Shown one piece after another: positions 1,774 to 33,807 of a DNA stretch of 33,807 bases; position 1 is the stretch's first letter, and each line of letters begins with the position of its first letter. The notes under the pieces were generated by a model that saw only the letters and a list, made by a program, of their open reading frames with translations, did not search any database and was not told the DNA's origin. This DNA comes from a virus (taxonomy: Duplodnaviria > Heunggongvirae > Uroviricota > Caudoviricetes), in the IMG/VR virus record IMGVR_UViG_2695420701_000007, positions 1 to 33,807 of that record; one strand, written 5' to 3'. The translations under genes were made by a program, and so were the position numbers.

Positions 1774-2314
1774 TTTTCATCTCCGGTGCATAAAAATAGT
1801 GATAGCTGCCATGCCAGTATCCGTGTCCGATAACACAATCCGTGGATGTGATTATCTGAAGATGGTAACGGCGGCAGGTGCGACCGTACTGGCGAATTAT
1901 CTGATTGAGTAATGTTGTATTTTCTGAGATCTGGTTGTCTGTCAGGCGCAAAAGAACAACATCCCAGTCTGTGCCTGGCTGGCGCTCCTGAATCTCCACA
2001 TAACCGATCCCCAGTCGTTCAAAAATTGCCCTGAATCCCGCCACGCTGCCCGCGTCCTGTGCGTTGATAAAGGCATATTTGACACGCTTTCTGTACAGCG
2101 TGAGCGGTTCGCCGTCAAAACGGGCTATATCATATTGCCAGGCTGTCAGGTTCAGAATGGATTCCGCACATGTCAGTGGGTCGGTCTGGCTCAGTGGCCA
2201 TGTTACCCAGTCGTGCACCTTTCCCCAGAAACGGATAAAGGTGTTTTTCAGGCGGAGCACATCGCCGCGATTCAGCCATGACGGCAACTTAATGTCCGGT
2301 GATTTATCAGACAT
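1742..2314 (-). CDS. I: Baseplate/tail protein I-like (P2 gpI family)
   Basis: 190 aa; segment CAESILNLTAWQYDIARFDGE...KYAFINAQDAGSVAGFRAIFERLG follows the pattern of P2 gpI; immediately upstream of the tail fiber gene with overlapping ends. Confidence 0.7.
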   Translation of the reverse strand: MSDKSPDIKLPSWLNRGDVLRLKNTFIRFWGKVHDWVTWPLSQTDPLTCAESILNLTAWQYDIARFDGEPLTLYRKRVKYAFINAQDAGSVAGFRAIFERLGIGYVEIQERQPGTDWDVVLLRLTDNQISENTTLLNQIIRQYGRTCRRYHLQIITSTDCVIGHGYWHGSYHYFYAPEMKNDPERYHFSI

Positions 2315-3485
2315 TCTTCACCTCAACTGTCAGTGTGTTCAGGCGGGGTACGTTCAGATCGCTGATGATATCCTCAAGGGAAAACGTCACGGATCCCACC
2401 AGAGGAAAGGTGTCATGCAGTTCGCGTCCCAGTTGCGAGAATGAAAAGCGACTGTATGGCCATGTGCGGGTTACGTCGTAGTTACTGTTTTCACGGAATG
2501 CACAACGAATCAGGTTTTCAGTGCCTGATTTCAGGGCGTCGATATCGTTTTTGCTGATATTGGAAAGGTTTTCAACATACACCGTAACCGCCAGATCGTG
2601 GCGGGTTTCCGGCATGGCAAAACAACGCATATCATCGCCGTGGCCGTGATGTCCCTGTGCCATGATGTAATCATTCACGCTGTCAACCCAGGGTTGCGAA
2701 ATAACCCCGGTATCCAGCAGCAGGTAGGCATTAGCTGTACCAGGTCCTCGCGGGGCGTCATGTAAAAAGAAGATGCGATCGATGGTCAGTCCGGCCTGTG
2801 CAGCTATCAGGCTGCGGTAAACTGCGTCAGTGTGATAACTGCCGGCAAGGTTAAACTGGTTACGGCAACGATCTTTTAGTTCGTCGTCACTTTCGCGGTT
2901 TGCGCCCGGTATGGTCAGCCAGTTATCACCGTTACGTACAGACGCAATTCCGTTAATCGCTTTGGGGAGTATCTGGTAATAGCCTGGTGCCAGATTGAAT
3001 GCCGTACCGCTGTCGGTGGCGATCACATCAATAAGGGTGCTTTGCGTGCCTGCGGGGATAATTACCTGCTCGCGGGTCGCCATGGAATAAATCACACCGT
3101 TAATACGCTCCGTCTGAATCAGTGTGCCAGCCGGTACGGTCACACTGTCATTCTGGTTGTTTTTGGTAAAAATGATTTTACCGATCGCACGCGTGGCTTC
3201 CTTGCGGGTAAGCTTGAGGGCGGCAGCGAACAGGTCAACGAACGGCCCTCTGGCAGTCATCAGAAACAGATTATGCAGTACATTGTCAGCCAGTGTGTCA
3301 ACAATCCACACATACGGCGTGATAACCAGCAACTGAATCAGCCGCCAGAATGGCGACATGCGCGACGTATTGGTGATGAGTTTTTCATCATCTGCCACCT
3401 GTTGCAGGGTGTCACGTACGGTCTGTTCATCAACCGGCATTCCGCTTTCGCGCAGTATGTTTTTGAAGTCGATATTATTCTGCAT
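2307..3485 (-). CDS. Baseplate J-like protein
   Basis: 392 aa; position between W-like and I-like genes, overlapping both neighbours (coupled operon); size and order match baseplate J family. Confidence 0.6.
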   Translation of the reverse strand: MQNNIDFKNILRESGMPVDEQTVRDTLQQVADDEKLITNTSRMSPFWRLIQLLVITPYVWIVDTLADNVLHNLFLMTARGPFVDLFAAALKLTRKEATRAIGKIIFTKNNQNDSVTVPAGTLIQTERINGVIYSMATREQVIIPAGTQSTLIDVIATDSGTAFNLAPGYYQILPKAINGIASVRNGDNWLTIPGANRESDDELKDRCRNQFNLAGSYHTDAVYRSLIAAQAGLTIDRIFFLHDAPRGPGTANAYLLLDTGVISQPWVDSVNDYIMAQGHHGHGDDMRCFAMPETRHDLAVTVYVENLSNISKNDIDALKSGTENLIRCAFRENSNYDVTRTWPYSRFSFSQLGRELHDTFPLVGSVTFSLEDIISDLNVPRLNTLTVEVKNV

Positions 3486-3816: not shown

Positions 3817-5898
3817 TCACCCCGCTGCCAGTTCGCTGTATTCCGCCAGTTGTCCCGGTGTCGCCAGGGTGTCAACGTGCAGTGTGATATCCTGCTTAAC
3901 GTTGTTATTGGTGACTTTGTCGCCCCGGTTGTTGCTTATCTGGTGACTTACCGGCCCGCCCTGGATGGCGGCGCTACGGTTGCCAGTGATAAGCTCCGGG
4001 GCGGGTGTCGGTGCGACGGTCTGTTGTGCGGTGCTGATATTGACACCGGGGATTTTGTTGAGCTTCTCTGCTATCCAGTTCCATGTCCCGGTAAAGGCGC
4101 TCTTAATGGAATCCCATATGCCGTCAAAGAGCTTGCCAATTCCAGCTGTGATATTGCCGAATGTGTCGGCCAGCGAGAAATTTTTAAACCAGTTCGTCAG
4201 ATTGTCCCATCCGGCTTTAATGCTGTTCCATGCATCATCAAACCAGCCCACCACAGCGTTAATGACTTTTAGCAGGGCACTGAAAGCTTCCGTGTCCATG
4301 ATGGCGGCTTTAATACTGTCCCAGTATTTGATAGCCAGACAGATCCCTACGGCAAGTGCGGCAATGGCGAGAATAATCAGGGTTATGGGACTTATCAGGA
4401 GTTGAAGCGCACCGCCTGCGAATGCCGTCGCCACGCCCCACAGGCGCATTGCAACCGCGCCCGCACGTAACACTACGTTCCAGGCTACGATCGCTGCTTT
4501 ACAGATCCCTGCCCAAAGAGCGACCAGCTTTGACCACACCCAGACGGCTTTTTCCTGAATCCATAGCCCCATCAGGCCAAGACGGGTTGAAAGCAGGGAG
4601 GGGCGTAATAAATCCAGGGTGAAGATTAGTCCTTTCCATGCGCCTTTCAGCACGCCAGCAATTCCGCTGAGCCCGGTCATGATAAAGCCGAAGGCCCCCA
4701 TCGTGATACTGGCAAGCGCCCCTGCTGCGGCAAAGGCGAGGGTCATTGCAGTGATATATCCCAGCCAGCGGGCAATATTGGGGAACGTATCCAGCCATTT
4801 CATGAAGGCTTTCCCGCCAGTGATGATTTTTTGCAGGAACGGGGCAAAGACGGGATCGAGCCGCAGACCGATACTGACGCGAACCTGCTCCAGTAAAGAA
4901 TTAACCTGATCCCACGGGTCAACCATCTTTTTCGCCATTTCGATGGCTTTATCCATGCCTTTGATGTTACCTAATGTATTGATGTTCCGTTTCAGCCCGT
5001 CAACATCTCCGGCCAGTAGTTTAATCATGGACACCGCTTCATCGCTGCCAAAGGCTTTTTTCAGCAGGTCTGCATCTGCCACTTTTGACAGATCACCAAA
5101 CTTTCCTTTAATCAGATCGATGATGCCGGTAATGCTTCTGGCACTGCCGTCCCGGTTGGTAAAGTTCAGCCCCAGCACTTTTTGCGCATTCCCAATCCCC
5201 GCCAGGAATGATTTATATTTGGTTCCCGCCTCGCTGCCTGACATGGTGGACTGGAGCTGTCCCAGTACGGCGAACTGTTCAGCGGCAGATACCTTCATTG
5301 CCTGCGCGTTGGCACCCAGCGCAGTAAAGGCAGCAGACATTTCATTACCGGTAGTTTTGAACACCTGAACGGCGGTTGCGGTCTGCCCGGCAATTTGTTC
5401 AACCCACTGCGTGCGCCCCATCTTCTCTGCGGTATTTTTAAAAACACCGTACATGGTGCCCATATAGTTAGTAATGGTGGCCGTGTCTGATTTGGTGGCT
5501 TTGGCGAGAATGGCGGATGCTTCAGTAAATTTTGGCAGTTCATCGCCCTGAAGTCCTGCGATGGCGGACTGGATATCGTAGGCGCTGCGGACGAAATTGC
5601 TGGCGCTTTCGCCGTAGTTAATGGCAAACGTCTGTGAAGTTTTACGCAGCTGATCGAGTGTTTTATTTGCCACATCCAGCGAGCTGACTTCGGCCAGCGC
5701 GGCTTCCATGTCGCGGGCGGGGTTGACCAGTCCTTTTATTCCCTGAGCAGCACCCCATAACCCGGCCACACCAAAACCGAGACGTTTAAAGTCGGCTGTT
5801 GCCTTGTCAGCAAATCCGGTCACAGCCGATTGCGCCTGTTTTAAGGGTCTCGTCAGCTTATCAACCAGACTTAGCGTAAAATCAAGTTCAGCAGCCAT
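3817..5898 (-). CDS. Tail tape measure protein
   Basis: 693 aa, Ala/Gly-rich with long predicted helices and a hydrophobic central block; follows the chaperone/frameshift gene; start ATG overlaps the stop of the E' frame (TAATG). Confidence 0.8.
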   Translation of the reverse strand: MAAELDFTLSLVDKLTRPLKQAQSAVTGFADKATADFKRLGFGVAGLWGAAQGIKGLVNPARDMEAALAEVSSLDVANKTLDQLRKTSQTFAINYGESASNFVRSAYDIQSAIAGLQGDELPKFTEASAILAKATKSDTATITNYMGTMYGVFKNTAEKMGRTQWVEQIAGQTATAVQVFKTTGNEMSAAFTALGANAQAMKVSAAEQFAVLGQLQSTMSGSEAGTKYKSFLAGIGNAQKVLGLNFTNRDGSARSITGIIDLIKGKFGDLSKVADADLLKKAFGSDEAVSMIKLLAGDVDGLKRNINTLGNIKGMDKAIEMAKKMVDPWDQVNSLLEQVRVSIGLRLDPVFAPFLQKIITGGKAFMKWLDTFPNIARWLGYITAMTLAFAAAGALASITMGAFGFIMTGLSGIAGVLKGAWKGLIFTLDLLRPSLLSTRLGLMGLWIQEKAVWVWSKLVALWAGICKAAIVAWNVVLRAGAVAMRLWGVATAFAGGALQLLISPITLIILAIAALAVGICLAIKYWDSIKAAIMDTEAFSALLKVINAVVGWFDDAWNSIKAGWDNLTNWFKNFSLADTFGNITAGIGKLFDGIWDSIKSAFTGTWNWIAEKLNKIPGVNISTAQQTVAPTPAPELITGNRSAAIQGGPVSHQISNNRGDKVTNNNVKQDITLHVDTLATPGQLAEYSELAAG

Positions 5899-8111: not shown

Positions 8112-9236
8112 TTACTCTCCGCTTTCGTCCAGCATGATGCTGATGGTGATTTCTTTCGGGCAGTTATACGGGCGAACCACGATCGCAATCTGCACTTTGT
8201 CTTTTTCCGGCCATGAGATTTTTACGTCGCCGTCGCGCGGTGACATGCAAAGGCCAGGGAATACCGTGCCGTTGATTTTCAGGCTCTTTGCGCCGTCGCG
8301 CATGGGCTTCGCAAAAAGCTGTTGGTGCGCGGCCACACTTGCCGGGGTGGAGTTCAGTGAGCGATCGGCGATTTTTGGGATAGCCAGCAAACGCACCTGA
8401 CGGGCCATTTCATCGGCAACGCGCAGATATTCGATAGCCTGATAATCGCCACCGTCCACATCGAGCGTGACGCCGTCGGCCCAGTAGTAACCTTCGTAGT
8501 CGGGATACCACGTTGGTACGCTGAAACGCGCCCTGTTCAGGGCCCTGATGGTGGCAGTGTCCAGTTCGCGCTTGTCGCTGTCCTGCGGTTTATCGTTGCG
8601 GCCCATATTGACCAGTGCGCCGGTTGCAACACGGGCGGGGGAATCAGCGATCGTCACTGACGGATTGCAAAGGCGACCGGCCAGTATCCCCGGCTCATTG
8701 CCGAACAGCATCGGGGTAAGCTGCACCGCGTAAGCGGCAATGTCTTTCTGTAGTCCGGTTATGGCGGTGACGTATTCTGACCACTTCTCGCCTGTTCCGC
8801 AGCCGCGAACAGCCAGGATAAACCATGTCCAGCGCTGGAAGGTGTTATTGAGTTCGCTGCGCAGTTGCTGCGCTTTGTTGATATCGTCACCTGAGGCGTT
8901 AGCGCGAACAACGACAACGCCTTCCACCGAGAGGGTGGCCTGTGCATCCATAACCACATCAACCCACGTTCGGGTCCGACCAGAAGGCTGGGGTGTCTGC
9001 ACGGTTGCCAGCCAGATCATGGCATTTTGTCCGGCATTATCCAGAAACGCCTGCACGTTACTGCGCAACAATGAATCCTTTGTTCCTAGCAGCGAGTCAA
9101 GATCGGTTTGTGCTGTAACCGGTGTCGGGAGAATGGCTTTTGTGTGCTCGCCCACCATCAGCAGGGTGCAGGCGATCCCACGCTTGCTTCCGCTGTGGGT
9201 GTTGAGCTGATTAATCGTGACCTGTGGAAACGTCAT
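8112..9236 (-). CDS. Tail sheath protein (putative)
   Basis: 374 aa, follows the S-like gene and precedes the tube gene; assignment by size and synteny. Confidence 0.5.
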   Translation of the reverse strand: MTFPQVTINQLNTHSGSKRGIACTLLMVGEHTKAILPTPVTAQTDLDSLLGTKDSLLRSNVQAFLDNAGQNAMIWLATVQTPQPSGRTRTWVDVVMDAQATLSVEGVVVVRANASGDDINKAQQLRSELNNTFQRWTWFILAVRGCGTGEKWSEYVTAITGLQKDIAAYAVQLTPMLFGNEPGILAGRLCNPSVTIADSPARVATGALVNMGRNDKPQDSDKRELDTATIRALNRARFSVPTWYPDYEGYYWADGVTLDVDGGDYQAIEYLRVADEMARQVRLLAIPKIADRSLNSTPASVAAHQQLFAKPMRDGAKSLKINGTVFPGLCMSPRDGDVKISWPEKDKVQIAIVVRPYNCPKEITISIMLDESGE

Positions 9237-11735: not shown

Positions 11736-12785
11736 TTATGCTACCTGGTTTGGTTTCGCATGTTCAGGTGATGGCAGTCCCGCCAGTTCAATGTTGTCAA
11801 ATGAACCGTAGAGTGCGTCATATTCCACGGCGCAACCCTGCATACGCAGCCAGTTGTTTTCGAAGCGTTTGCGGTCATCAATCCATTCAGCACGGCGTTG
11901 CTGTGTTCCGCGCTGGAAGTACATATGCAGATTCCAGAGCGTGGTGACAACCAGGCGGTTATCCGGCATAAATGGCGGACTGAATGACTTGCGTCCGGCG
12001 ATCTCACGGTTGATAAGCTGGGCGGCGACTTTTTCTGTCGGGCGGTCGATGCGGTTCAGCATACTGACCGTATCTGCTGCGATAATGTTCTGTGATACCA
12101 GTACAACCAGATCCGGGTGTTGACGGAATTCGGGTGGAATGCAGGTATTAATTACATCGGCGGCAATAGCATCAACAGACGTAAAATCAGCCCCGGTTCC
12201 TGTACGGTTCAATACGACCTTGTCAGTAATGATCTGTTTTGGTGTGCGCGCTTTAACAATCTGATGCCATCCCGGGTGAATATCTTCCCCGTTCGGGCAG
12301 GTATCAGGATTGGTTTCATCTGCGGCATGCGTACCGTTCAGTGCCACGCGTAACAGGTCGTTGGTGACTGACTTGTAAAAGAACGCCTGAAGACGGTTAT
12401 AGAACTCGTTTTCGGTGCCTGCGTTTGCCCAGTTGGTCAGGGTGGTGTAGTCCAGGAATGAACCGGAATCCACTTCGTAAAGCTTGTACTCGTTGCCTTC
12501 ACTCCCCAGCGCTTTATTGAAGCGTCCGTCTTTCTTGCGCCCGGTATACAGCCCCGGAATTCCGGTACTGACTACCTGGCCGACAAGCTGTTCGACCAGC
12601 ATGACGGTGATCTTGCCCATGAACGGGTCGGCATTCTCAATCAGGGCATCGCGTAGCAGGGTTTCACGTGGTGGGCTGATGGTAAAAAACTGTTGTGCTG
12701 TAAATACGCCATTGGCTTTTGCCATCGAAATGGCGTAATTACGCAAAAACTTTTGCGCCTGTGGTGATAACATCTGTGCGGCCAT
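11736..12785 (-). CDS. N: Major capsid protein, P2 gpN-like
   Basis: 349 aa, follows the scaffold gene; size and order as P2 N. Confidence 0.75.
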   Translation of the reverse strand: MAAQMLSPQAQKFLRNYAISMAKANGVFTAQQFFTISPPRETLLRDALIENADPFMGKITVMLVEQLVGQVVSTGIPGLYTGRKKDGRFNKALGSEGNEYKLYEVDSGSFLDYTTLTNWANAGTENEFYNRLQAFFYKSVTNDLLRVALNGTHAADETNPDTCPNGEDIHPGWHQIVKARTPKQIITDKVVLNRTGTGADFTSVDAIAADVINTCIPPEFRQHPDLVVLVSQNIIAADTVSMLNRIDRPTEKVAAQLINREIAGRKSFSPPFMPDNRLVVTTLWNLHMYFQRGTQQRRAEWIDDRKRFENNWLRMQGCAVEYDALYGSFDNIELAGLPSPEHAKPNQVA

Positions 12786-12832: not shown

Positions 12833-13945
12833 TTACAGCGGTTCAAACTGCGCGGGTTGTTCGCCGGGGGCTGCGCCCGGCGTCGGTGTGCGCTGGCTTT
12901 CAATGACCGAAAAACGCTGGCTCAGATTTTCGATTGCACTGGTAAGCGTTGTCAGTGTGGCGGCGTCGGCCTCATCATCTTTTTCCGTCTTCCGGGTACT
13001 GAAATTCTGCGCTGCGGCTGGCGCTGGCTGTTGTCCGCCATTACGGGCGGCGATACGTGCCTGGAGTTTTGCGGTTTCAGCATCCTGTGGCTGCACCGTA
13101 AAGGTGTTAAGTGCGGTCTGTAGCTCCGTCACGGCGGTGGTGTAGTTCTGGCGTGCCGTGTCGTCTTTCGGGTTGATGGCCAGTGTGTCAGTGGCAACGG
13201 AAAGCTTTTCACTCAGCTCCGCAACGTGATTAGCGTGAGCGCTGAAATCCCCGGTTACTGGCTGTGTGTCTGCTGTTGCGGATGCCGTGGGCTGCGCCGG
13301 TGCGGGTTGCTGTGCCTGTGGTTGCGTGTTCGCCTGCGCGTCAATTTTTGCCGTCAGAGTGACAATCTGGGCTAGCAACTGGTTCGCCTGTTCTTTAGTC
13401 ATGGATTTATCCTCATGATGGTTTGTTGGGGTGTCAGCGACCAGCGTCAGACGCCCAAGACTGAACATTTCAATATTTCCAGCGGCGGCATACTGCGGAC
13501 GTGAGCCCTGTGTGTTGTTTTCCACTGATTTGATTTCCATGCGCTGGGTTCCCAGACTTGCCGGACTGTCGGTTGCTGCCAGCCCGTACAGATAGGTTTG
13601 CCCGGTGTTGGCATAGTTCTCCCAGAACTCGCACGAGGTAAAGAGCTTCTGGCCGCGATCGTTAAGGTTAACCAGCGCCTGGTTAGGCTCCAGCTTCGCC
13701 ATAAGGCGCAGTCTTCCGGCGTCTTCTTTAGCCGCCAGCTCGGAAACAAGCCCCAGATTGGGGGTAAATTCTCGCTCCTGAAGACTGTATACGGGGTGAT
13801 TAGGCCAGATCATCGCTGTGTATCTGGCGGTGCTGTAGTTGTCAGCGGCCTGCTGGATCATTTCGCGGGTAATGGGGCGACCGTCGATGGCGTAGCCTTC
13901 GGTTGCTATGCATATCCAGTCAGTGGTGTATTTCTGCTTTGCCAT
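12833..13945 (-). CDS. O: Capsid scaffolding protein, P2 gpO-like
   Basis: Listed ORF 12833-14005; likely start at internal Met MAKQKYTTDW... (complement of 13943-13945). Contains NYANTGQTYLYGLAATDSPASLGTQ, matching the conserved gpO block, plus a long Q/A/P-rich low-complexity linker. Confidence 0.75.
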   Translation of the reverse strand: MAKQKYTTDWICIATEGYAIDGRPITREMIQQAADNYSTARYTAMIWPNHPVYSLQEREFTPNLGLVSELAAKEDAGRLRLMAKLEPNQALVNLNDRGQKLFTSCEFWENYANTGQTYLYGLAATDSPASLGTQRMEIKSVENNTQGSRPQYAAAGNIEMFSLGRLTLVADTPTNHHEDKSMTKEQANQLLAQIVTLTAKIDAQANTQPQAQQPAPAQPTASATADTQPVTGDFSAHANHVAELSEKLSVATDTLAINPKDDTARQNYTTAVTELQTALNTFTVQPQDAETAKLQARIAARNGGQQPAPAAAQNFSTRKTEKDDEADAATLTTLTSAIENLSQRFSVIESQRTPTPGAAPGEQPAQFEPL

Positions 13946-14102
13946 TTCATTACCGCTTTTTGATGTATCTGGCGGTATTATTGCGGCTGTTTTCGCGGGT
14001 TTCATTCGTTCTGAATCCGGGCTTTTCGTATATGATTTTATGTGCGAAAAATGCCAAAATTTAACGATATTTCAGAGTGTTATTGCTCTTTATGATGGGC
14101 GA

Positions 14103-17438: not shown

Positions 17439-17957
17439 TTATTCGAAGCTGGCAAGAATCTGTTCTCGAACAGAAGATTTCATCGTTAACCCACGATCCA
17501 GGAAAAATTGGAAATGCATTAAGGCTTGTTGTTTGTGGATAAATCTCCTGCGCACAGCCTCCTGGAGTAGCCCTCCGTGGCGGGCGGCTTTTACACCGCG
17601 TTCCGCACACGTTTTATAAACCGCATTATCCGCCGAAAGACATGTTGCATCATGTATTCTCGCGTTAACAACGCAGCTTATGTCCGCATACTTCAATGCT
17701 CTCCTGCGATTTTTTATCTCAGCCATTTCAATAAAATGTTCAGGTTCGTAATCATTGGTGAAATTGTATGGAAGTTGCAGGCGTGTAAGCTGTTCCTGAA
17801 CATCAAGATTGTATTTAGCTTTTAGTTCCTCGCAGACATAGGGGTCAATCCACACACCACCCGGGTAAATTTGCCAGATAAGATCTAAGCATTTACCTTC
17901 GTAAAAATCAGACAGTACATTCGTATCGATAACACATCTGGGGCATTCAAACGGCAT
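17439..17957 (-). CDS. PIN-like domain protein (DUF4411-like), putative toxin/nuclease
   Basis: Listed ORF 17439-17990; probable start MPFECPRCVIDTNVLSDFYEG (complement of 17955-17957), overlapping the upstream gene stop by about 11 nt. VIDTNVL is the typical N-terminal strand-1 motif of PIN domains; region is AT-rich. Confidence 0.55.
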   Translation of the reverse strand: MPFECPRCVIDTNVLSDFYEGKCLDLIWQIYPGGVWIDPYVCEELKAKYNLDVQEQLTRLQLPYNFTNDYEPEHFIEMAEIKNRRRALKYADISCVVNARIHDATCLSADNAVYKTCAERGVKAARHGGLLQEAVRRRFIHKQQALMHFQFFLDRGLTMKSSVREQILASFE

Positions 17958-19092
17958 CCTCTCCGGCCTCCTGTTCGTCGTACCATTCATCCAGAAGATT
18001 GCTGAGAGCTTTTCTGTCTAATTCTAAAAGTTCAGATATGAAGGTTTCCGACGCGGAACCGGCTTCCCATGCTTTACGCGATAAGACGGTTAGGCGACCT
18101 TTATAATTTAGTGCTTCCCTTATGGGATTTGGCTCGTGTCTCTTCCAGCCTTTACGATTGGCGGTTGCCCATAGGTATCTAGTGTTTTGCTGATTAATTA
18201 AATTACATTTACTAAGACGCTCAATGATGCAAGTGGCTGATACTCTGAAAATGCTTTTTAGTCTAAGGACGGTTTCCTCATACGCCCATCCACCACCTTG
18301 CATGACGAATTGTTTTCGCAACGCGCTTTCTGGTACCAAAAAACAAGCAGCAAAGTGATTAGCAACTTTTTCTTCCGGTGAAATTGCTTTGCCATTAGTT
18401 TTATAGCTTTTAGCAGGGCCATCATACTCATCACGGTGGAAGATAAGATGAGCATATTCATGGCAAATACTGAAGATTTGACGTTCTATTGAAATGCTGT
18501 CGTGAACATTTACATAAATCGCGGTACCGTATTTGTTCGAAAACGCAGAAAATCCGAATACCATCCCTTTATCGGTTTCCTCGCGATTGAACGGGATCAC
18601 TCGAATATCCGATGCTTCCAAAATGGCTACAATGTCACCAACGCAAGTAGCGTTTCCCATACCAAGACGGAAACGTTCTTCCATAGCCTTATCTTCGACT
18701 CTTCGCAAATCTTCTGCTTTGGCGGTAAAAACAGGCATTGAGTTAGGAAGATCTTCTGGCAAATTAGCATCAGCAGCTTCCTCAATTGCATTGATATTTT
18801 TTAACTTTTCAATCAACTCATTGCGAAGTCTGGCATCCAACAAATCCGGACTATCTGCTCGCATTGCAAAACGAAACTCGCCATCATCTTGCTCATAAAA
18901 ATACCCGACAGGCTTATCGAAAATCTTGCAGAGCATGATGAGTTGGGTAACGCTTGGGACGCCTAGCGCCTGCTCAAACTTACTGTAGGTTTGACGAACA
19001 ACACCGATCGCATCTGCGACGGCGCTTGCACTCATTCCTGCGTCGTTTCTGGCCTGAACCAAGCGTTCTGCTATACGCTGTTGAATGTTCAT
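17947..19092 (-). CDS. XRE-family HTH domain fused to ImmA/IrrE-type zinc metallopeptidase (COG2856-like)
   Basis: 381 aa; N-terminal HTH (MSASAVADAIGVVRQTYSKFEQ), C-terminal HExxH motif (ICHEYAHLIF) in a context typical of ImmA/IrrE peptidases; AT-rich codon usage. Confidence 0.65.
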   Translation of the reverse strand: MNIQQRIAERLVQARNDAGMSASAVADAIGVVRQTYSKFEQALGVPSVTQLIMLCKIFDKPVGYFYEQDDGEFRFAMRADSPDLLDARLRNELIEKLKNINAIEEAADANLPEDLPNSMPVFTAKAEDLRRVEDKAMEERFRLGMGNATCVGDIVAILEASDIRVIPFNREETDKGMVFGFSAFSNKYGTAIYVNVHDSISIERQIFSICHEYAHLIFHRDEYDGPAKSYKTNGKAISPEEKVANHFAACFLVPESALRKQFVMQGGGWAYEETVLRLKSIFRVSATCIIERLSKCNLINQQNTRYLWATANRKGWKRHEPNPIREALNYKGRLTVLSRKAWEAGSASETFISELLELDRKALSNLLDEWYDEQEAGEDAV

Positions 19093-19745: not shown

Positions 19746-20137
19746 GAATGGCGCTGCGGTAAAAAGACCCTTTGCGTCAGTGCGGCCTTGCGATTGACGG
19801 CAGTCAGCGTTCTGGCCAGCGCGACATTGTGTTTGCGGGTCTGCTCTTCGTGGTACTTCTGCATGATTTTCCCGGCCGGCGTGAGTGGTTCCGGCTCTTC
19901 CGGTGAACGGCGCGGACGAACGGCAACTATCCAGCTCTGATATTCACTGCCCGGTCGCCTGTTAAGTATGTCGGTGATGGTGGTTGTGGTGGTGCGATCG
20001 GGGCTGGCCACCGTGATTTCCAGTTCGTCCCCGGGCTGTGGTCTTGTGGCTACGCCTCTCAGTGTCATGGCTGGCGTGCGCTGGCGCATAACGGCGTCGA
20101 ACTGCTGACGCTGCATGGTGCAGTGAAATCGCGTCAT
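19706..20137 (-). CDS. Hypothetical protein downstream of replication gene A
   Basis: 143 aa ORF overlapping the end of gene A; Thr/Pro/Arg-rich. Confidence 0.35.
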   Translation of the reverse strand: MTRFHCTMQRQQFDAVMRQRTPAMTLRGVATRPQPGDELEITVASPDRTTTTTITDILNRRPGSEYQSWIVAVRPRRSPEEPEPLTPAGKIMQKYHEEQTRKHNVALARTLTAVNRKAALTQRVFLPQRHSCARPAQHRRDSQ

Positions 20138-22626
20138 GATCTTACCTCCGCTGACGACTCCTGTGTGATGACGATGCGGCGGGTTGTGGCGCTCCAGTAC
20201 GCGATACGCCCGTCGCCCGGGCGAACGCGGGCACCGTTACTCACGGAAATAATGGCTGCGTCAGGCAGCTGCACACCCAGCGCGTCGAGTTCGCGGGTGA
20301 TTTGTGCGATGGTCGTGGTGTCGACAGGCACGACAACCTCCACCCTGACAGGGGTGTCTGATGCTGGTCTGGTGTTATTTTGTCCGGTATCCGTGGCGGG
20401 CGGCTGATTTTTAAGCTGTCTGATGAGCTGTTTCCGCTCGTAATGGCTCAATCCCTGCAACCATTGTGTCAGGCCATTTTCCGGAAGTGTCAGACGTTTC
20501 TCCTGCTGCCTGTTTTCTGTGCCGGTTCCGGCTGTTTTTTCGTCGCCGGGACAGTTATTGCCACGAGTCCAAGGGGCGGCAGGGCCGCCCTGAAGGTCAA
20601 AACCATTTTCGCGGGCGCTGTCTTCCGCTTCCGGTTTACGTCTTACCAGCTTCCAGTTGTCCGGATGCGTGCACACACGGGAGGATTCCCCGATGAGTGG
20701 CGACCAGATCCCGTAAATCTGTACGCTCTGTTCGCCGTAATCGTTCAGCTCATCTGCGAGGTCGTAGGCGGTGCGAATCAGGTAGTCCTTACGTGGAACA
20801 AGTACGCCGCCCTGTTTCTCTATGTAGGTGGCAAAACACCCGGCATCAGCGGCAGCAAGAACCGCATCCATTGCGTCATCCTTCAGCCGTTGCGGGCCTT
20901 CCGGGTTGCGTGCCATCTGGCTGGCAAGGCGGCGCAGTTCACGCCATACCTGACGGGAGGGGATGCCAAAGAACTGGAACTGGCGGACCCGGTGAAGGCG
21001 CGCCCAGCCGATGGCGCGTTCCACGCTTTCTGCCATCGTCTTTCCTGATTCGTCGTCGATGCGCGGTTTGCCTGTTTTCGGGTCAATGCCATCCACGGCG
21101 TGGCTGTCCAGGTTCTTTCCGATGTAGGTGGCGATATAGCTGGTCGGCGTACCTTTCGAACCGTCGACGTACTCCGCCTTAAAGCGCGGAGTTATGTCAT
21201 CGCCCAGCTCGTGGCGGTCTTCACGAATGGCAATATCGCGGGCGATGGTCACGATGCTGTCGATTTCTTCAGGATGTGCAAAGACCATCATATGCCAGTG
21301 CACCGTGCCGTCATGGTGAGGCTCCACCGTGCGGATGCCATACCAGCGCAGGCCCTTGCGGTCCAGTCTGTTACGAACGGCTTTAAAAAAAGTGTTAACC
21401 AGATAATCACTGGAATCGCGCATGGTAGCCCCGTTCCATTTGGGGTTCGGATGACCGTTCTCCGTTGTTGCGTGGTATTTTGACGGGCAGGTGACAGTCA
21501 GAAACACCGCTTTGTCGCCACGGGATTCGGCTATAAGTTCCGCCCCTTTCATGGTGGCCATCATTTCTGCCTTACGGTGAACCGGGTTACTTACTCCCGC
21601 GTAATACACTGTCTCGAGATCAATCGTGAACCCGTCTTCATTTTCCAGCATGAAACTTTTCAGGAAATCGCGTGTTTTCTCGCGCTGTGCGCGAAACTCA
21701 CTTAACGCGTCCTGGCTCAGATAGGGCGATGTTTTTCTGGAAACCAGACAGGCGGCGCGGAGTTGTTCTTCTCTCCACTCGCAACGTAAAAGCCACAGTT
21801 TGCGTTTCCACCAGTCCGCACAGGTCAGGCGAAGGATTGCGCCCGGCAGCAGTTCCGTGTCCGGTTCGTTCTTGCGGTCTTTGTCTGTTGTCAGCGCGTC
21901 ATAATGTGGAGGCATGGCGTGCAGGTGTAGCGCCATGCGGGCCAGCATCTGATACGCCTTCAGTGCCACCTCCATGGTCAGCTCGCCATCTCTGGCACCG
22001 AAACCATCACAGAGTGTTTCAAAGGAGCTGCTGAACATTGCCGCCGTCATGGTGCCCAGCGTCTGTATCTGGTGCTTGTTAAGCTGCGGCAGGTACAGCA
22101 AATCGTCCAGGCGTTCGCGTCCGGCAAGGGCGCGATAACCCGGTGTCAGCCAGCGGCTGTCGGTGCGGTCCAGTCGTTCGAATATTTTGCGCAGGGTTCC
22201 GCGCGCGTAGCCCTCTGATGGTCGACTCTTTTTGCCTTTCTGGCGGTCAGATTCCTGCTTCTTACGTAAAAAAGAGAGGCGGCGGCTCAGAGGTTCACGC
22301 AGATAAACAGGTAGCGCCTTTAGTGTGACAAATGCACGGGCCACCGGGTCTTGTTCTGTTGCCTGGCGCTTGCTGATGATGCTTTGTGTTACCTTCTCGC
22401 GCCGTTCGTCCTCATCGAGGGCGACCATGAGTTTTTTACCCATGTCTGACTGCACAAAAAAGGCTTCTTCTTCCGCCTCCCTGACTTCCTGTGCTTTCAG
22501 ATCTGCTTCCTGGTAGTAGCGTATGGCCTGTTGCAACGGGGTTTCAGGCGTAGGCTGATACTTCGCAAATGTGGCTGGGTCAATGGCCTGCCGTGGTTCG
22601 TTCCAGTCCCAGGTAAATTCACTCAT
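20134..22626 (-). CDS. A: Replication initiation endonuclease, P2 gpA-like (rolling-circle Rep)
   Basis: Listed ORF 20134-22653 (839 aa); probable start MSEFTWDWNEP. Size and position (end of early operon) match P2 gene A; contains His/Tyr-rich central region (GTVHWHMMVFAHPEE ... TPTSYIATYIGKN) compatible with HUH-type endonuclease motifs. Confidence 0.8.
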   Translation of the reverse strand: MSEFTWDWNEPRQAIDPATFAKYQPTPETPLQQAIRYYQEADLKAQEVREAEEEAFFVQSDMGKKLMVALDEDERREKVTQSIISKRQATEQDPVARAFVTLKALPVYLREPLSRRLSFLRKKQESDRQKGKKSRPSEGYARGTLRKIFERLDRTDSRWLTPGYRALAGRERLDDLLYLPQLNKHQIQTLGTMTAAMFSSSFETLCDGFGARDGELTMEVALKAYQMLARMALHLHAMPPHYDALTTDKDRKNEPDTELLPGAILRLTCADWWKRKLWLLRCEWREEQLRAACLVSRKTSPYLSQDALSEFRAQREKTRDFLKSFMLENEDGFTIDLETVYYAGVSNPVHRKAEMMATMKGAELIAESRGDKAVFLTVTCPSKYHATTENGHPNPKWNGATMRDSSDYLVNTFFKAVRNRLDRKGLRWYGIRTVEPHHDGTVHWHMMVFAHPEEIDSIVTIARDIAIREDRHELGDDITPRFKAEYVDGSKGTPTSYIATYIGKNLDSHAVDGIDPKTGKPRIDDESGKTMAESVERAIGWARLHRVRQFQFFGIPSRQVWRELRRLASQMARNPEGPQRLKDDAMDAVLAAADAGCFATYIEKQGGVLVPRKDYLIRTAYDLADELNDYGEQSVQIYGIWSPLIGESSRVCTHPDNWKLVRRKPEAEDSARENGFDLQGGPAAPWTRGNNCPGDEKTAGTGTENRQQEKRLTLPENGLTQWLQGLSHYERKQLIRQLKNQPPATDTGQNNTRPASDTPVRVEVVVPVDTTTIAQITRELDALGVQLPDAAIISVSNGARVRPGDGRIAYWSATTRRIVITQESSAEVRS

Positions 22627-23012
22627 GGTTGACACCCTGTCACGCGTTGCCATTCCTGCGAGAAGAGGGCAGAAAGACGGTTAAACTCAGTGGTGTATTC
22701 ACTCAGCGAGGCACACCCGCCAGCGGTGCGATGCGCCAGCATTGCTGCAAACACGGAGGCAGGGGAGTTGTAATACGCCAGCAGGGAGTCGCCGTGTGGT
22801 GTCAGGGTGTACAGGGCCAGACCGTGTGGTGTGAAGTCCACGCGGTAACAGTCGTCCACGATGAAATAAAGGGGGCCTGCGTTCTCTGGTTTTGTGGTGC
22901 GAGCCTGGCTGGCGCGGGCACGGAGATAGAAATCAAACATTGCCTGAAGTTTTGGAGCCAGACGGGTGTCCTGTGTGCGCACCCATTTTACGAAGTCATG
23001 ACGGTCAATCAT
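22623..23012 (-). CDS. Hypothetical protein upstream of gene A
   Basis: 129 aa ORF, stop adjacent to gene A start. Confidence 0.4.
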   Translation of the reverse strand: MIDRHDFVKWVRTQDTRLAPKLQAMFDFYLRARASQARTTKPENAGPLYFIVDDCYRVDFTPHGLALYTLTPHGDSLLAYYNSPASVFAAMLAHRTAGGCASLSEYTTEFNRLSALFSQEWQRVTGCQP

Positions 23013-24190: not shown

Positions 24191-24492
24191 GATTTGGCCT
24201 CCTTACGGCTTTCTGGTGTGGAGATGATCAGATTCAGTTTCAGGGCGGTGGCGTGTTCCTCTTTTGCCCCCGGCGAGTCCTCCCAGCCATCCAGCAGGTA
24301 AATCACATCGGCACAGTGCAGCATGGCGCTCCCGATAAGCATGTAGTCCCTGTATCTCAGCCCGTCAGGGAGTGTTGCGGGGTTGAGTACGGTATGACCC
24401 TGCATCCTCAGGCGGGTCGCCGTCATGGTGAAGGCGGTGCGGTTGAAATCAGGCTTCCCCGTCATGGGGCCAGCGATATAGATAACGGCCAT
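24181..24492 (-). CDS. Nucleoside 2-deoxyribosyltransferase-like protein (DUF4406-like)
   Basis: 103 aa starting MAVIYIAGPMTGKPDFNRTAF, the typical N-terminus of the DUF4406 / deoxyribosyltransferase-like fold found in phages. Confidence 0.5.
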   Translation of the reverse strand: MAVIYIAGPMTGKPDFNRTAFTMTATRLRMQGHTVLNPATLPDGLRYRDYMLIGSAMLHCADVIYLLDGWEDSPGAKEEHATALKLNLIISTPESRKEAKSCF

Positions 24493-25451
24493 TACATGAT
24501 CTCCGTGGTGGGGTGTGGAGCGGGAATGTGAGACAGCCAGCCCGCATTGACATCCCGGATCCGGACCTCACGGGCTGGCGGATAAACACCAATCACCTCT
24601 TTTGCCTGCTGGCGTGCACTGCTGCTGGCAGCCACAGCGCGGCGAACGCTCAGGGTGTGCAGCTCAAACGAGGAATAGATCTGCCGGGTTTCGGAGGTGT
24701 CACTGTTGGAGACCACCGGGTGGATACCGTAACGCTGCCAGGCGTTCATCATGAGCGCCGCAAGGTCACGGTGGTCTTTGCGGGTAAATGCCCGGCCGTT
24801 GTAGTGAGTGAACGCCTCTTTACCGTCCGGTGGCAGGTAGGGCGGATCGCAGTAAATGGCGATATCGCCGTGCACCGAAGAAAAACGGCGGATCTCAGCC
24901 GGCATTGTGAAGGCTGTACGGAAATCCGCGTGAATAAAGCGGGTCCGGGTCTCGTTGGCTTTATCAGCAAACAGGCGCATTTCCTGGCAGGGGAAATAAG
25001 GCATGCGGTGTTTGCCGAATGGCACATTGAATTCGCCTTTTTGGTTGGTGCGGTACAGGCCGTTAAAGCAATGGCGGTTCAGGTACAGAAACAGCGCTGC
25101 CCATTCCAGGGATTCGCCGCGTAATCTGTCGGTGGCCAGCGCGATGGTGTTAAATGCCCCGCGATGGCGTTTGTAGGCTTCCGGTGTGCCGCCATCCTTA
25201 AAGAGCGACCATGCACGATCCATTAATTCCGTGGTGTTGGTCGTCAGTTGCTGGTAGAAATTAATCAGCGCGGGGTTGCTGTCACACAATACGTAATAGT
25301 CATAATCCGTGTTCATGAAGACCGAGCCGCCGCCCACGAAGGGTTCGATCAGGCAGGCGGCTTTGGGTAAATATTCGCGCAGCTGCGGCATGATACTGAA
25401 TTTGCCGCCCGCCCATTTGAGCGGTGAGCGCTGGTTCAGAATACCTTTCAT
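24492..25451 (-). CDS. dam: DNA adenine methyltransferase (Dam-like, D12 class N6-A MTase)
   Basis: 319 aa; N-terminal LKWAGGK motif, catalytic DPPY motif (IAIYCDPPYLPP), FxGxG-like SAM region (EPFVGGGSV). Confidence 0.8.
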   Translation of the reverse strand: MKGILNQRSPLKWAGGKFSIMPQLREYLPKAACLIEPFVGGGSVFMNTDYDYYVLCDSNPALINFYQQLTTNTTELMDRAWSLFKDGGTPEAYKRHRGAFNTIALATDRLRGESLEWAALFLYLNRHCFNGLYRTNQKGEFNVPFGKHRMPYFPCQEMRLFADKANETRTRFIHADFRTAFTMPAEIRRFSSVHGDIAIYCDPPYLPPDGKEAFTHYNGRAFTRKDHRDLAALMMNAWQRYGIHPVVSNSDTSETRQIYSSFELHTLSVRRAVAASSSARQQAKEVIGVYPPAREVRIRDVNAGWLSHIPAPHPTTEIM

Positions 25452-29872: not shown

Positions 29873-30874
29873 ATGTCTGTTCGTAAATTACCTACTGGCA
29901 AATGGCTCTGTGAATGCTACCCCTACGGAGCAGCAGGAAAACGCATTCGTAAACAGTTTGTTACTAAGGGTGAGGCGCTCTCTTATGAGCGCCGTTTAAT
30001 GAACAGTAATTTGGGGAGCGAGTTTCAGGATGGTTCTGGCCCCCGCCTTTCCGAGTTGGTTGCTCGCTGGTTTGAGATGTACGGTAAGACACTGTCTTCC
30101 GGTGAAGAGCGAAGGGCTAAACTTGAGGCGATTTGCTCCCGGTTGGGGGATCCGCTTGCTTCTCAATTTGATAAAAACATGTTTGCCACCTACAGGGAAC
30201 GGCGATTATCAGGTGAATGGAATCCAAAGGGGAAGAGGAAGCTTAGCGAAGCAACCGTTAATCGTGAGCAGTCATATCTACATGCTGTTTTTGCCGAACT
30301 GAAGCGCCTTGGGGAGTGGTCTGGTGAAAACCCCTTAACTGGCATTCGCAAATTTCGTGAGGAAGAAAAGGAACTGGCGTTTCTGTATGTAGATGAGATT
30401 GAACGCCTTCTGATTGCGTGTGATGAGTCACGGAATAAAGATTTGGGGGTTGTTGTCCGTATTGGGCTTGCGACTGGTGCTCGGTGGAGTGAAGCAGAAG
30501 GATTAAAGCAATCTCAAGTACTGCCCGGTCGAATCACATTTGTTAAAACTAAAGGAAAGAAGAACCGCACTGTACCGATTTCACCTCAATTGCAGGCTAT
30601 GCTTCCTAAAAAACGAGGAGCGCTATTTTCACCATGTTATGAGGCTTTTGACGCTGCAATTAAGAGAGCGAAGATCGAGCTTCCTGATGGGCAATTAACT
30701 CATGTGCTACGTCACACGTTTGCCAGTCATTTTATGATGCGGGGCGGAAATATTCTTGTGTTGCAAAAAATACTGGGGCATAGCGATATAAAAATGACTA
30801 TGCGTTATGCGCATTTTGCTCCAGGTCATTTAGAGGCTGCTGTTGAATTGAACCCTTTTGACAATAGAGGGTAA
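29873..30874 (+). CDS. int: Tyrosine integrase (phage integrase family)
   Basis: 333 aa; C-terminal catalytic region HVLRHTFASHFMMRGGNILVLQKILGHSDIKMTMRYAHF (HxxR ... Y); adjacent to the tRNA-derived att core. Confidence 0.85.
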   Translation: MSVRKLPTGKWLCECYPYGAAGKRIRKQFVTKGEALSYERRLMNSNLGSEFQDGSGPRLSELVARWFEMYGKTLSSGEERRAKLEAICSRLGDPLASQFDKNMFATYRERRLSGEWNPKGKRKLSEATVNREQSYLHAVFAELKRLGEWSGENPLTGIRKFREEEKELAFLYVDEIERLLIACDESRNKDLGVVVRIGLATGARWSEAEGLKQSQVLPGRITFVKTKGKKNRTVPISPQLQAMLPKKRGALFSPCYEAFDAAIKRAKIELPDGQLTHVLRHTFASHFMMRGGNILVLQKILGHSDIKMTMRYAHFAPGHLEAAVELNPFDNRG

Positions 30875-30981
30875 AAAGTGGCGATAAAAAGTGACAATAG
30901 ATTCAAATGGCGTTGTATAGAGCTATTTTCAAAGTTAATAAAATCATAAGGTTATGATTTATAAATGGTGGTTGATAGTTT

Positions 30982-31035
30982 TTAAAATCCCTCGGCGTTC
31001 GCGCTGTGCGGGTTCAAGTCCCGCTCCGGGTACCA
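30982..31035 (+). tRNA. leuZ: 3' fragment of tRNA-Leu (leuZ-type): phage att core / prophage-host junction
   Basis: TTTAAAATCCCTCGGCGTTCGCGCTGTGCGGGTTCAAGTCCCGCTCCGGGTACCA matches the anticodon-loop-to-CCA part of E. coli tRNA-Leu(UAA) from memory; the sequence upstream does not complete the 5' acceptor stem or D arm, so this is a partial copy. Confidence 0.7.
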
Positions 31036-31080
31036 TGGGAAAGATAAGAATAAAATCAAAGTAATAAGCAGTGTCGTGAA

Positions 31081-31103
31081 ACCACCTTCGGGTGGTTTTT
31101 TTG
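31081..31103 (+). terminator. Rho-independent terminator downstream of the tRNA
   Basis: ACCACCTTCGGGTGGTTTTTTTG: 6-bp GC-rich stem, TTCG tetraloop, T7 run. Confidence 0.75.
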
Positions 31104-31230
31104 TGCCTGCAACTTGTCGTTACACCCTCCTTAATTTTTAATCACCGGCAAAGCCACTCAAAAAGTATCTCTGATACGGACCGGCATGTAAGATAGGTGC
31201 TGGCGAGTTGAGATCCACAAGGAAAAGCGT

Positions 31231-31896
31231 ATGAAAACGGGACCGTTAAACGAAAGTGAGTTGGAATGGCTGGACGATATTCTGACCAAATACAACACTA
31301 ACCACGCCATCCTTGATGTGGCGGAGCTGGACGGTTTATTGACGGCGGTGTTGAGTTCTCCGCAAGAGATTGAACCGGAACAGTGGCTGGTTGCCGTGTG
31401 GGGTGGGGCTGACTATGTGCCGCGCTGGGCGTCAGAGAAAGAGATGACGCGCTTTATGAACCTGGCTTTTCAACATATGGCCGATACCGCAGAGCGTCTG
31501 AACGAATTCCCGGAGCAGTTTGAGCCGTTATTCGGCTTGCGAGAAGTTGATGGCAGCGAGCTGACGATTGTTGAGGAGTGGTGCTTTGGCTATATGCGGG
31601 GCGTGGCACTTTCTGACTGGTCAACGTTGCCCGATTCGTTAAAACCAGCGCTGGAGGCGATTGCGCTGCACGGTACTGAGGAAAACTTCGAGCGGGTAGA
31701 AAAGATGTCGCCAGAAGCGTTTGAAGAGAGCGTAGATGCCATTCGACTGGCGGCGCTTGATCTACATGCGTACTGGATGGCGCATCCGCAGGAAAAAGCT
31801 GTTCAGCAACCGATCAAAGCAGAAGAGAAACCGGGGCGTAACGATCCTTGCCCGTGCGGTAGTGGTAAGAAATTTAAGCAGTGCTGCCTGCATTAA
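31231..31896 (+). CDS. yecA: YecA-like SEC-C motif protein (UPF0149)
   Basis: 221 aa ending in the SEC-C zinc motif [15 protein letters not shown]; host gene following the leuZ locus. Confidence 0.8.
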
Positions 31897-31957
31897 GAGG
31901 CCAAATTGGGTGTCAGCGTTAATTCTGGCACCCAATAAGGAATTTGAGGCTATCTGA

Positions 31958-33169
31958 TCACCCCACTTCTGGTAACAACCCTGCCGCAATCAAAAATTGC
32001 ACGCCAATCACAGCAATACCACAGAGAAACACCACCACCAGCGCCGGACGACCACCTTTGACCCGGTAACCCGCCTGAGGATTGTGCTTTCTGCTTTGCC
32101 AGGTCAACAGCGAAGGGATAATCAATGCCAGTACCGCCAGCGCCACACCGGCGTAACCCAGCGCCATCACAAATCCTCGTGGATAAAACAGTGCAAACGC
32201 CAACGGCGGCAGAAAGGTAATTGCACCAGTTTGCAACCGTCCACCAACGGTATTTGAACGCTGAAATAAATCAGCCAGATAATCAAATAAGCCTAACGCA
32301 ACGCCGAGAAATGACGTGGCGAGGGCTAAATCAGCAAATAAATGCACTGCCAGCTCAACATGCGGAGAGGCCACCATTTCGCGTAACGCCTGTAACAGCC
32401 CGTTTAATCCAGCATGATTAGCCAGCAATCCCATAAAGGTTGTTGAATCAATGCTGCCAAGCGTTGCCACCTGCCAGAAAATATATGCCACCAGGGGGAT
32501 CGCACTACCGGTTATAAACACCCAGCGTAGCTTACGAACGTTGCCATCCATATAGCTGACAATACTCGGCACGCTACCGTGAAAACCAAATGAGGTAAAA
32601 ATCACCGGGATTGCTGACAGAGCCAGCCCCTGTTGCAACGGCAGGGTTAAAAGATTCACTTTGTGAATATGCGGTAGCAGCAATACCAGCATCACCACCA
32701 GAAAAATAATTTTGGCGCTGAACAGAAAACGGTTAAATAAATCGACCAGCGATGTTCCAACACAAACCACGCCACCGGCAACAAAAGTGAACAACAGCAC
32801 GCCAGCGGTTGCCGACATTGAAATACCTGTCCAGTCGCTGATGCTGGAGGCCAACAATTCACCGACACCGCTGATGTATGCCGCAGTCAGAGCATACATT
32901 AAGAACATCATACTGAAGCCCGTCAGCCATTGACCGTAGCGTCCCAGATAGCGTTTTGCCAGCGTGCCCAGACCGGTATCTGCCGGAACATGCTGGTACA
33001 CCTCCAGCAGTAATAGCGCCGTGTAGCACATCAACGCCCAAAGCCCAATCAACAAGATTAACGTAACGCTAAAACCAACACCGGCCGCAGCCAGCGGCAT
33101 TGCCAGCATGCCTGCGCCAATTGTGGTTCCCGCCACGATAAAAACACTTCCCAGGGTTCTGTTTTTCAC
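31958..33169 (-). CDS. tyrP: Tyrosine-specific transport protein (aromatic amino acid permease family)
   Basis: 403 aa polytopic membrane protein; size, hydrophobicity profile and synteny with yecA/yecH match E. coli tyrP. Confidence 0.8.
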
Positions 33170-33359
33170 GCTTTCTTCTGTCCTGACGATCTTTATGAGT
33201 GATATCTGCGGCGCAGGTTAAGGCATAACGGCTGCTTCGTCAAACCGACGTTACATATAGTGTAAATATAAATGTACAATAAAAAGCATTCAGTCCTGCG
33301 CTGGCGCAAAGTCTTCATAAGCGGCAATCGCTACGCTAGGCTTTTTTTGAGGAGGAACG

Positions 33360-33599
33360 ATGGACTCTATTCACGGTCATGAAGTGTTAAATATGATGAT
33401 TGAATCAGGCGAGCAATATACGCATGCCAGTCTGGAAGCTGCGATTAAAGCGCGTTTTGGTGAACAGGCACGTTTTCACACCTGCTCGGCAGAAGGGATG
33501 ACAGCGGGAGAGCTGGTAGCGTTTCTGGCAGCAAAAGGCAAATTTATACCTTCGAAAGACGGTTTTTCGACCGATCAGAGTAAGATTTGCCGTCACTGA
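33360..33599 (+). CDS. yecH: YecH-like small metal-binding protein (DUF2492)
   Basis: 79 aa with CSAEGM ... KICRH; synteny between tyrP and ftnA. Confidence 0.7.
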   Translation: MDSIHGHEVLNMMIESGEQYTHASLEAAIKARFGEQARFHTCSAEGMTAGELVAFLAAKGKFIPSKDGFSTDQSKICRH

Positions 33600-33635
33600 T
33601 TTGAAACGGCGGCAGTAAACCTGCCGCCGGAGAGC

Positions 33636-33711
33636 ATTAGTTTTGTGTGTCGAGGGTAGAGAGTTCTTTGTCGATAAAATACAGACCTTCGCCGCTTTTG
33701 CCTGCCAGGCT
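33636..33711 (-). pseudogene. ftnA: 3' fragment of ferritin gene ftnA, truncated by IS10 insertion
   Basis: Minus-strand translation SLAGKSGEGLYFIDKELSTLDTQN-stop matches the C-terminus of E. coli FtnA; upstream codons are replaced by IS10 end sequence. Confidence 0.7.
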
Positions 33712-33807
33712 CTGATGAATCCCCTAATGATTTTGGTAAAAATCATTAAGTTAAGGTGGATACACATCTTGTCATATGATCAAATGGTTTCGCGAAAAAT
33801 CAATAAT
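33712..33807 (+). mobile_element. IS10 (Tn10-type) outside end, partial; extends beyond the window
   Basis: CTGATGAATCCCCTAATGATTTTGGTAAAAATCATTAAGTTAAGGTGGATACACATCTTGTCATATGATCAAATGGTTTCGCGAAAAATCAATAAT matches the IS10 outside terminus as I recall it (terminal inverted repeat, pIN promoter region with its GATC site). Confidence 0.75.

Follow-up and report, generated by a model that had tools for sequence, protein, structure and literature searches.

The window, by which the whole 33,807-nucleotide stretch of the IMG/VR record IMGVR_UViG_2695420701_000007 is meant, stops within sequence that lies directly against the last codons of a chromosomal ftnA gene, and thereby raises the question of what has interrupted this ferritin gene, by which route it arrived, and whether it says anything about the history of the strain. 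It is proposed here that an IS10-Right-type IS10 has inserted at the nine bases TGCCAGGCT of ftnA, that the element would be a full solo copy, and that these nine bases constitute a target to which IS10 has returned repeatedly. Taken as a whole, this reading is considered highly probable.

The Junction between ftnA and IS10

The terminal 96 bp of the window were found to agree, at all 96 positions, with the outside end of the IS10-Right copy that Tn10 carries on plasmid R100 (BLAST E-value of 4e-42), and carry the terminal sequence of the IS10 outside end, starting CTGATGAATCCCC. The matching R100 copy was assigned as IS10-Right because it adjoins tetD, tetC, and tet(B), and five differences (positions 24, 25, 27, 47, and 83) separate the window from the IS10-Left end of the same transposon. 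IS10-Right belongs to the IS4 family, being listed as IS10R in ISfinder and labelled “IS4-like element ISVsa5 family” by PGAP. The covariance model of RNA-OUT (RF00240) gave a match of 60.6 bits, above its gathering score of 41, covering model positions 20–70 of 70 with its 5' end cut by the window end alone, and R100 holds the full-length match at IS10 bp 46–115, in the same register as in the window. Both the identity and the RNA-OUT match uphold the preliminary description of this DNA, which had taken the terminal 96 bp for the outside end of IS10.

The coding sequence of the IS10 transposase begins at element base 108 in the closed genome of strain 20KM2762, the equivalent position here being 33819, past the window end; the transposase gene of the window IS10 points along the plus strand, antiparallel to ftnA. 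Within the visible part of the element, we take approximately bp 1–23 (33712–33734) to be the terminal inverted repeat, approximately bp 30–42 to be the IHF site, and the GATC at bp 67–70 (33778–33781) to be the Dam site of the pIN region.

On the other side of the junction, the minus strand translates to SLAGKSGEGLYFIDKELSTLDTQN followed by a stop, corresponding to residues 142–165 of FtnA, the full length of which is 165 residues. The alignment references were the intact ftnA of RMDEC364 and the disrupted ftnA of 20KM2762. Identity to the intact gene ends at 33711 and the sequence beyond is unrelated, which bears out the earlier claim that ftnA is truncated; with ftnA identity reaching 33711 and bp 1 of IS10-Right standing at 33712, the junction is precise to the base, and the comparison with reference IS10 and ftnA that had been suggested as a check found both of its sides identical to the references. 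A complete 165-codon FtnA reading frame with helices A–E is absent from the window, where only codons 142–165 adjoin yecH. The feature had been said to start at 33636, which is one base early, the complement of the stop codon occupying 33637–33639. It had also been said to break ferritin about 24 codons before its stop, which holds for the remnant in the window but not for the protein: three of the 24 remnant codons are the duplicated target, so that the protein breaks off behind residue 144, with the loss of 21 residues.

Read in the frame of ftnA, IS10 presents a stop codon four codons from the junction; the remnant also lacks a start codon, so that it is not translatable by itself. A fusion reading frame running from IS10 into the ftnA remnant was also considered and was ruled out by this in-frame stop four codons before the junction and by the missing start codon. 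Since the neighbouring yecH is intact and convergent with ftnA, a polar effect is not expected. Between the convergent yecH and ftnA stops, at 33603–33635, lies a GC-rich inverted repeat (cggcggcag taaa cctgccgcc), which looks like a predicted terminator hairpin shared by the two genes; a simple promoter and terminator scan of 33200–33807 called nothing useful, and missed this hairpin because it is followed by no T run. The features of the window are collected in Table 1.

Table 1. Coordinates of the features discussed, in window positions.
Feature	Position	Strand	Basis or remark
Tape measure	3817–5898		prophage
Major capsid	11736–12785		prophage
Replication endonuclease	20134–22653		prophage
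Dam-type methylase	24492–25451		prophage
Integrase	29873–30874		prophage
yecH, intact neighbour, convergent with ftnA	33360–33599	+	open reading frame list, annotation of homologous loci
ftnA 3' remnant, codons 142–165 and TAA	33637–33711	-	translation, identity to intact ftnA
9-bp IS10 target TGCCAGGCT, ftnA codons 142–144 (Ser-Leu-Ala)	33703–33711	.	same 9 bp flank complete IS10 copies elsewhere
IS10 bp 1–96, IS10-Right type, outside end reading inward	33712–33807	+	96/96 identity to R100
RNA-OUT 3' 51 nt (IS10 bp 46–96 of 46–115)	33757–33807	-	Rfam RF00240

The arrangement is consistent with an IS10-Right-type copy (IS4 family, with a cut-and-paste DDE transposase) that would have transposed into TGCCAGGCT at codons 142–144 of the chromosomal ftnA, leaving its outside end against the 3' remnant of the gene and its transposase gene opposite in direction to ftnA. 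A repeat of TGCCAGGCT would be expected past the window, where the element ends, and judging from the identical insertions of other genomes, the IS10 here would be a solo copy, complete at 1329 bp and bounded by a 9-bp duplication.

The Same Nine Bases in Other Genomes

The same junction was found in three closed genomes of one Swiss cat and dog clone, namely 20KM2762, 20KM2300, and 20KM2228. In 20KM2762, the element is a 1329-bp IS10 encoding a 402-residue transposase, flanked by a direct duplication of TGCCAGGCT, with no difference from IS10-Left over its whole length and in the same orientation as in the window. The clone differs from the window in the IS10-Left type of its element, in its chromosome haplotype (28 mismatches per 2.7 kb), and in lacking the prophage. 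The TGCCAGGCT duplication flanks a complete 1329-bp IS10 in L001/L019 (L001 being 20KM2762), L015, L017, L018, and L027, which places on record at the same site the 9-bp duplication that had been expected beyond the window. The homologous insertions at this site are 1329 bp long, encode a 402-residue transposase of the DDE_Tnp_1 type, and have an inside end starting CTGAGAGATCCCC.

If the window IS10 were complete, the product of ftnA would be FtnA(1–144) followed by 14 residues, LRDPLIISPKRNHV, read from the inside end of IS10. A search of the protein collection found this predicted chimera exactly, as protein P0121, for which 11 contigs are listed and 12 were read, the draft contigs among them stopping 75–224 bp inside IS10. 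Three of the contigs at the site (L020–L022) join ftnA codons 1–144 to an IS10-Right inside end, which is the junction expected opposite the one in the window, and three others (L023–L025) end in an inside end of the IS10-Left type at ftnA. Together with the 20KM clone, all six share with the window the target, the break after Ala144, and the orientation. Given that other draft contigs at the site likewise stop 75–224 bp inside IS10, the window probably stops 96 bp into the element as a draft contig broken in a repeat, in which case the genome would hold one or more further copies of IS10; the end of the window should be read as a repeat-induced assembly break and not as a biological boundary. 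Exact matches to window proteins (2307–3485, 3817–5898, 8112–9236, 11736–12785, 12833–14005, 17947–19092, and 24492–25451) bear accessions of one series, CSQ73248 to CSQ73337, which increase along the window and suggest that it derives from one draft assembly of an E. coli/Shigella isolate submitted to ENA.

A misjoin, in which a chimeric contig end would bring together ftnA and IS10 reads while ftnA is really intact, deserves some thought at this point, as the window does end in a multi-copy repeat, where misjoins arise. The break, however, falls exactly at bp 1 of IS10 and at a 9-bp target that fits the consensus, and the junction recurs in the three closed genomes and in many independent assemblies, together with the reciprocal junction and the duplication, so that the probability left to an artefact is close to negligible.

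Two further chimeras disclosed the same target in use in the opposite direction. Chimera P0001 (18 contigs read) arises from insertion at the same nine bases in the orientation opposite to that of the window; three of its contigs (L015, L017, and L018) hold a complete IS10 with four differences from IS10-Right and the same duplication. Chimera P0260, found on two contigs (L027 and L028), likewise reflects insertion at TGCCAGGCT against the direction seen in the window: L027 carries a solo IS10-Left with the TGCCAGGCT duplication, and in L028 (GCA_002474635.1) ftnA codons 1–144 abut an IS10-Left outside end, after which the contig stops. The P0001 and P0260 contigs thus share the target and the break after Ala144 with the window, but are of opposite orientation.

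The seven 6-kb 5' flanks that were aligned (L015 and L019–L024) all differ, at 8–150 sites per 6 kb in pairwise comparison, the nearest difference being 139 bp from the junction, and by BLAST those of L027 and L028 are different again. Counting by nothing more than element type and orientation, at least four insertion events must have taken place at the ftnA site, and the flank haplotypes suggest, as far as sequence comparison can tell, about ten. It is this combination of both orientations, IS10-Right and IS10-Left types, and differing 5' flanks that marks the site as a recurrently used IS10 target, and a preference of IS10 for this target explains more simply than common descent or engineering why unrelated strains share the allele. 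The site is recurrent without being dominant, accounting for one clone (3/5426 complete genomes) against 4206 chromosomal places with an IS10 end. No match to the exact 25-mer of the junction was found in the GTDB species representatives or in the JGI/ENA metagenome contigs.

The window's own flank haplotype was found in none of the partner-type contigs (L020–L028). These show 24–136 mismatches per 5.4 kb to locus L004, whereas the chromosomal part of the window (30981–33711) lies only 1–2 mismatches per 2.7 kb from L004–L008, which are without the prophage. Loci matched through TyrP and the integrase carried intact ftnA only.

Two side observations were made at the locus. Several FtnA variants from Logan, ENA, and NCBI assemblies (P0003, P0004, P0006, P0008, and P0009) have frameshifts at or near CCAGG, in codons 142–145, which may reflect errors of sequencing or assembly, or else genuine indels at the Dcm site. 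In L011 (GCA_900448845.1) and L013 (GCA_012221365.1), which carry the same prophage, ftnA and yecR are separated by an extra segment of approximately 780 bp; the L011 copy of this segment encodes a 167-residue IS1-type DDE transposase, and in L013 no gene is called in it. The segment shows other insertion sequence activity around an intact ftnA.

Solo IS10 or Whole Tn10

A whole Tn10 seated in ftnA, comprising tetR-tetA(B)-tetC-tetD between inverted copies of IS10-Left and IS10-Right, the outside end of the latter of which would be what is seen in the window, would account for the junction as well, since both ends of Tn10 are outside ends. Such an insertion predicts that, at the other junction, ftnA codons 1–144 would meet the outside end of IS10-Left, and L028 is what it would leave. 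The haplotype of L028, however, is not that of the window (compared with L004, it shows 30 mismatches per 5.4 kb, and the window 1–2 per 2.7 kb), and the identical chimera in L027 comes from a solo IS10-Left. Every resolved insertion at the ftnA site is a solo IS10 and none is a Tn10, and where the element is of the IS10-Right type in the orientation of the window (L020–L022), the opposite junction is an inside end. A whole Tn10 is accordingly held to be improbable, and a solo IS10 in the window's genome is favoured by precedent.

The Target and the Preference of IS10

The published target consensus of IS10 is NGCTNAGCN in its strict form and NRCNNNGYN in its relaxed form (PMC4574204). The ftnA target TGCCAGGCT agrees with the relaxed form throughout and with the strict core GCTNAGC at 4/6 positions, and contains a Dcm site (CCAGG). 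A sample of natural targets was drawn up from 142 distinct IS10 outside-end flanks in species-representative genomes and metagenomes, the hosts being mostly other than E. coli. Its preferences reproduce the consensus, with R at position 2 (G in 87 and A in 48 of the 142 flanks), C at position 3 (114), T at position 4 (80), A at position 6 (71), G at position 7 (117), and Y at position 8 (C in 96 and T in 41). GCC is a minority half-site, being found in 19/284 half-sites of the same sample.

Other sites with cores of this kind came to light. In rclA, IS10 occupies the identical target TGCCGGGCT in L098 (NZ_CP053603.1), a K-12 dam/dcm laboratory strain, and in L103 (NZ_CP182371.1); four more complete genomes (H110, H112, H113, and H119) have an equal-scoring rclA match, judging from match scores alone. 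The site looks like another recurrent off-consensus IS10 target, with the non-Dcm core GCCGGGC. An intergenic site (...ccataaac TGCCAGGCA), which shares its core, GCCAGGC, with the target in ftnA, holds IS10 in three unrelated human isolates, EC11, HD12480, and AJ6 (L099, L104, and L105).

A reason for the choice of the ftnA site might be sought in its methylation. Codons 142–144 would then be a natural hot spot because the core GCCAGGC is a Dcm site, the methylated form of which would mimic the consensus: Dcm would place 5-methyl groups on two symmetric cytosines, at the positions of the thymines in the optimal core GCTNAGC. Work by Lee, Butler and Kleckner in 1987 (PNAS 84:7876) is said to offer a precedent for the principle, of which ftnA would be an instance in nature. 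The 142-flank sample, from its mostly non-E. coli hosts, contains one GCCWGGC and one GCCSGGC target, too few for any power. A BLAST query built from the target, and so biased to such cores, returned other GCCAGGC sites in E. coli as well as the recurrent non-Dcm GCCGGGC of rclA, and because of this bias no enrichment is claimed for GCCAGGC. The methylation idea is therefore offered as a rather doubtful one; if true, host cytosine methylation would shape the landing sites of IS10 in wild E. coli.

Consequence for Ferritin

In an AlphaFold2 model of FtnA (24 homologues, mean pLDDT of 90), helix D spans residues 114–144 and helix E residues 148–163; a solved structure of E. coli FtnA is available as 1EUM. 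The protein is interrupted behind Ala144, where helix D ends, with loss of the D–E turn and the whole of helix E. Without helix E, FtnA(1–144) extended by the 14 unrelated residues LRDPLIISPKRNHV would probably be a non-functional ferritin subunit. As FtnA is the main iron-storage ferritin, its loss could alter the physiology of iron stress.

Prophage, Strain, and the Question of Engineering

A P2-like prophage extends from position 1, which falls inside a gene of the tail-fibre region, to approximately 30980, and the chromosomal part follows from 30981 to 33711. The join between the two, at approximately 30981, lies within the 3' part of a tRNA-Leu gene (leuZ), and no intact tRNA was found in the window. 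The prophage is 98.7–98.8% identical to the same-locus prophages of the human isolates RMDEC332, RMDEC364, and VL46 and of CFSAN029787, which is presumably an enteroinvasive strain, and ftnA is intact in all four.

In the preliminary description, IS10 had been taken as a possible mark of an engineered or Tn10-exposed strain. On such an account the insertion would be a laboratory marker, the product of Tn10 or mini-Tn10 mutagenesis. Of each IS10 end, laboratory mini-Tn10 derivatives keep no more than the outermost 70 bp or so; in the window, the native sequence of IS10-Right runs on unbroken as far as bp 96, beyond the 70 bp of mini-Tn10. Many K-12 laboratory strains do retain IS10 from Tn10 work (PMC4574204), and the last 312 chromosomal bases of the window are identical to K-12, but they are identical to many wild strains too. 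Approximately 31 kb of the window, moreover, is the P2-like prophage, which is absent from K-12 and has its closest copies in human isolates, from stool and from cases of diarrhoea, and assemblies of clinical, veterinary, and metagenomic origin have the same ftnA allele. An IS10 end is present in 1877 of the 5426 complete E. coli genomes (35%) and in 3036 plasmid records. A laboratory origin is very improbable in view of these points, and the suspicion of an engineered or Tn10-exposed strain is not sustained by the commonness of IS10, the prophage, or the solo IS10 of the resolved cases.

The IS10 in ftnA is an ordinary mobile-element insertion in a wild E. coli or Shigella-type strain, and nothing points to engineering, for which the insertion is not to be taken as evidence. 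For annotation, ftnA in the window's strain is best entered as a pseudogene interrupted by IS10. For strain typing, identical ftnA::IS10 alleles are no evidence of common descent, since the same nine bases have been hit independently in unrelated strains.

A literature search covering IS10 with ftnA, the 9-mer, and ftnA pseudogenes returned no description of this insertion or of repeated use of the target. The insertion itself is of an ordinary, already known kind, and the only mildly new point is the repeated natural use, as read from the sequences compared, of the same 9-bp ftnA target.

Comparison with Known IS10 Insertions

Set beside IS10-Right of Tn10, the window element has in common the first 96 bp, the position of RNA-OUT, and a target that fits the IS10 consensus; it differs in being inserted here in the chromosomal ftnA, with the terminal 96 bp alone visible. 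As for the target, the cat-promoter site TACCGGGCG of plasmid pSU8 is a recurrent IS10 target in the published work (PMC4574204). This site, together with TGCCGGGCT of rclA and the intergenic TGCCAGGCA, resembles that of ftnA in its off-consensus core of the GCC/GGC type and in the repeated use of the same bases by IS10 in independent strains or plasmids, whereas the loci differ, and the cores of rclA and pSU8 are not Dcm sites while that of ftnA is.
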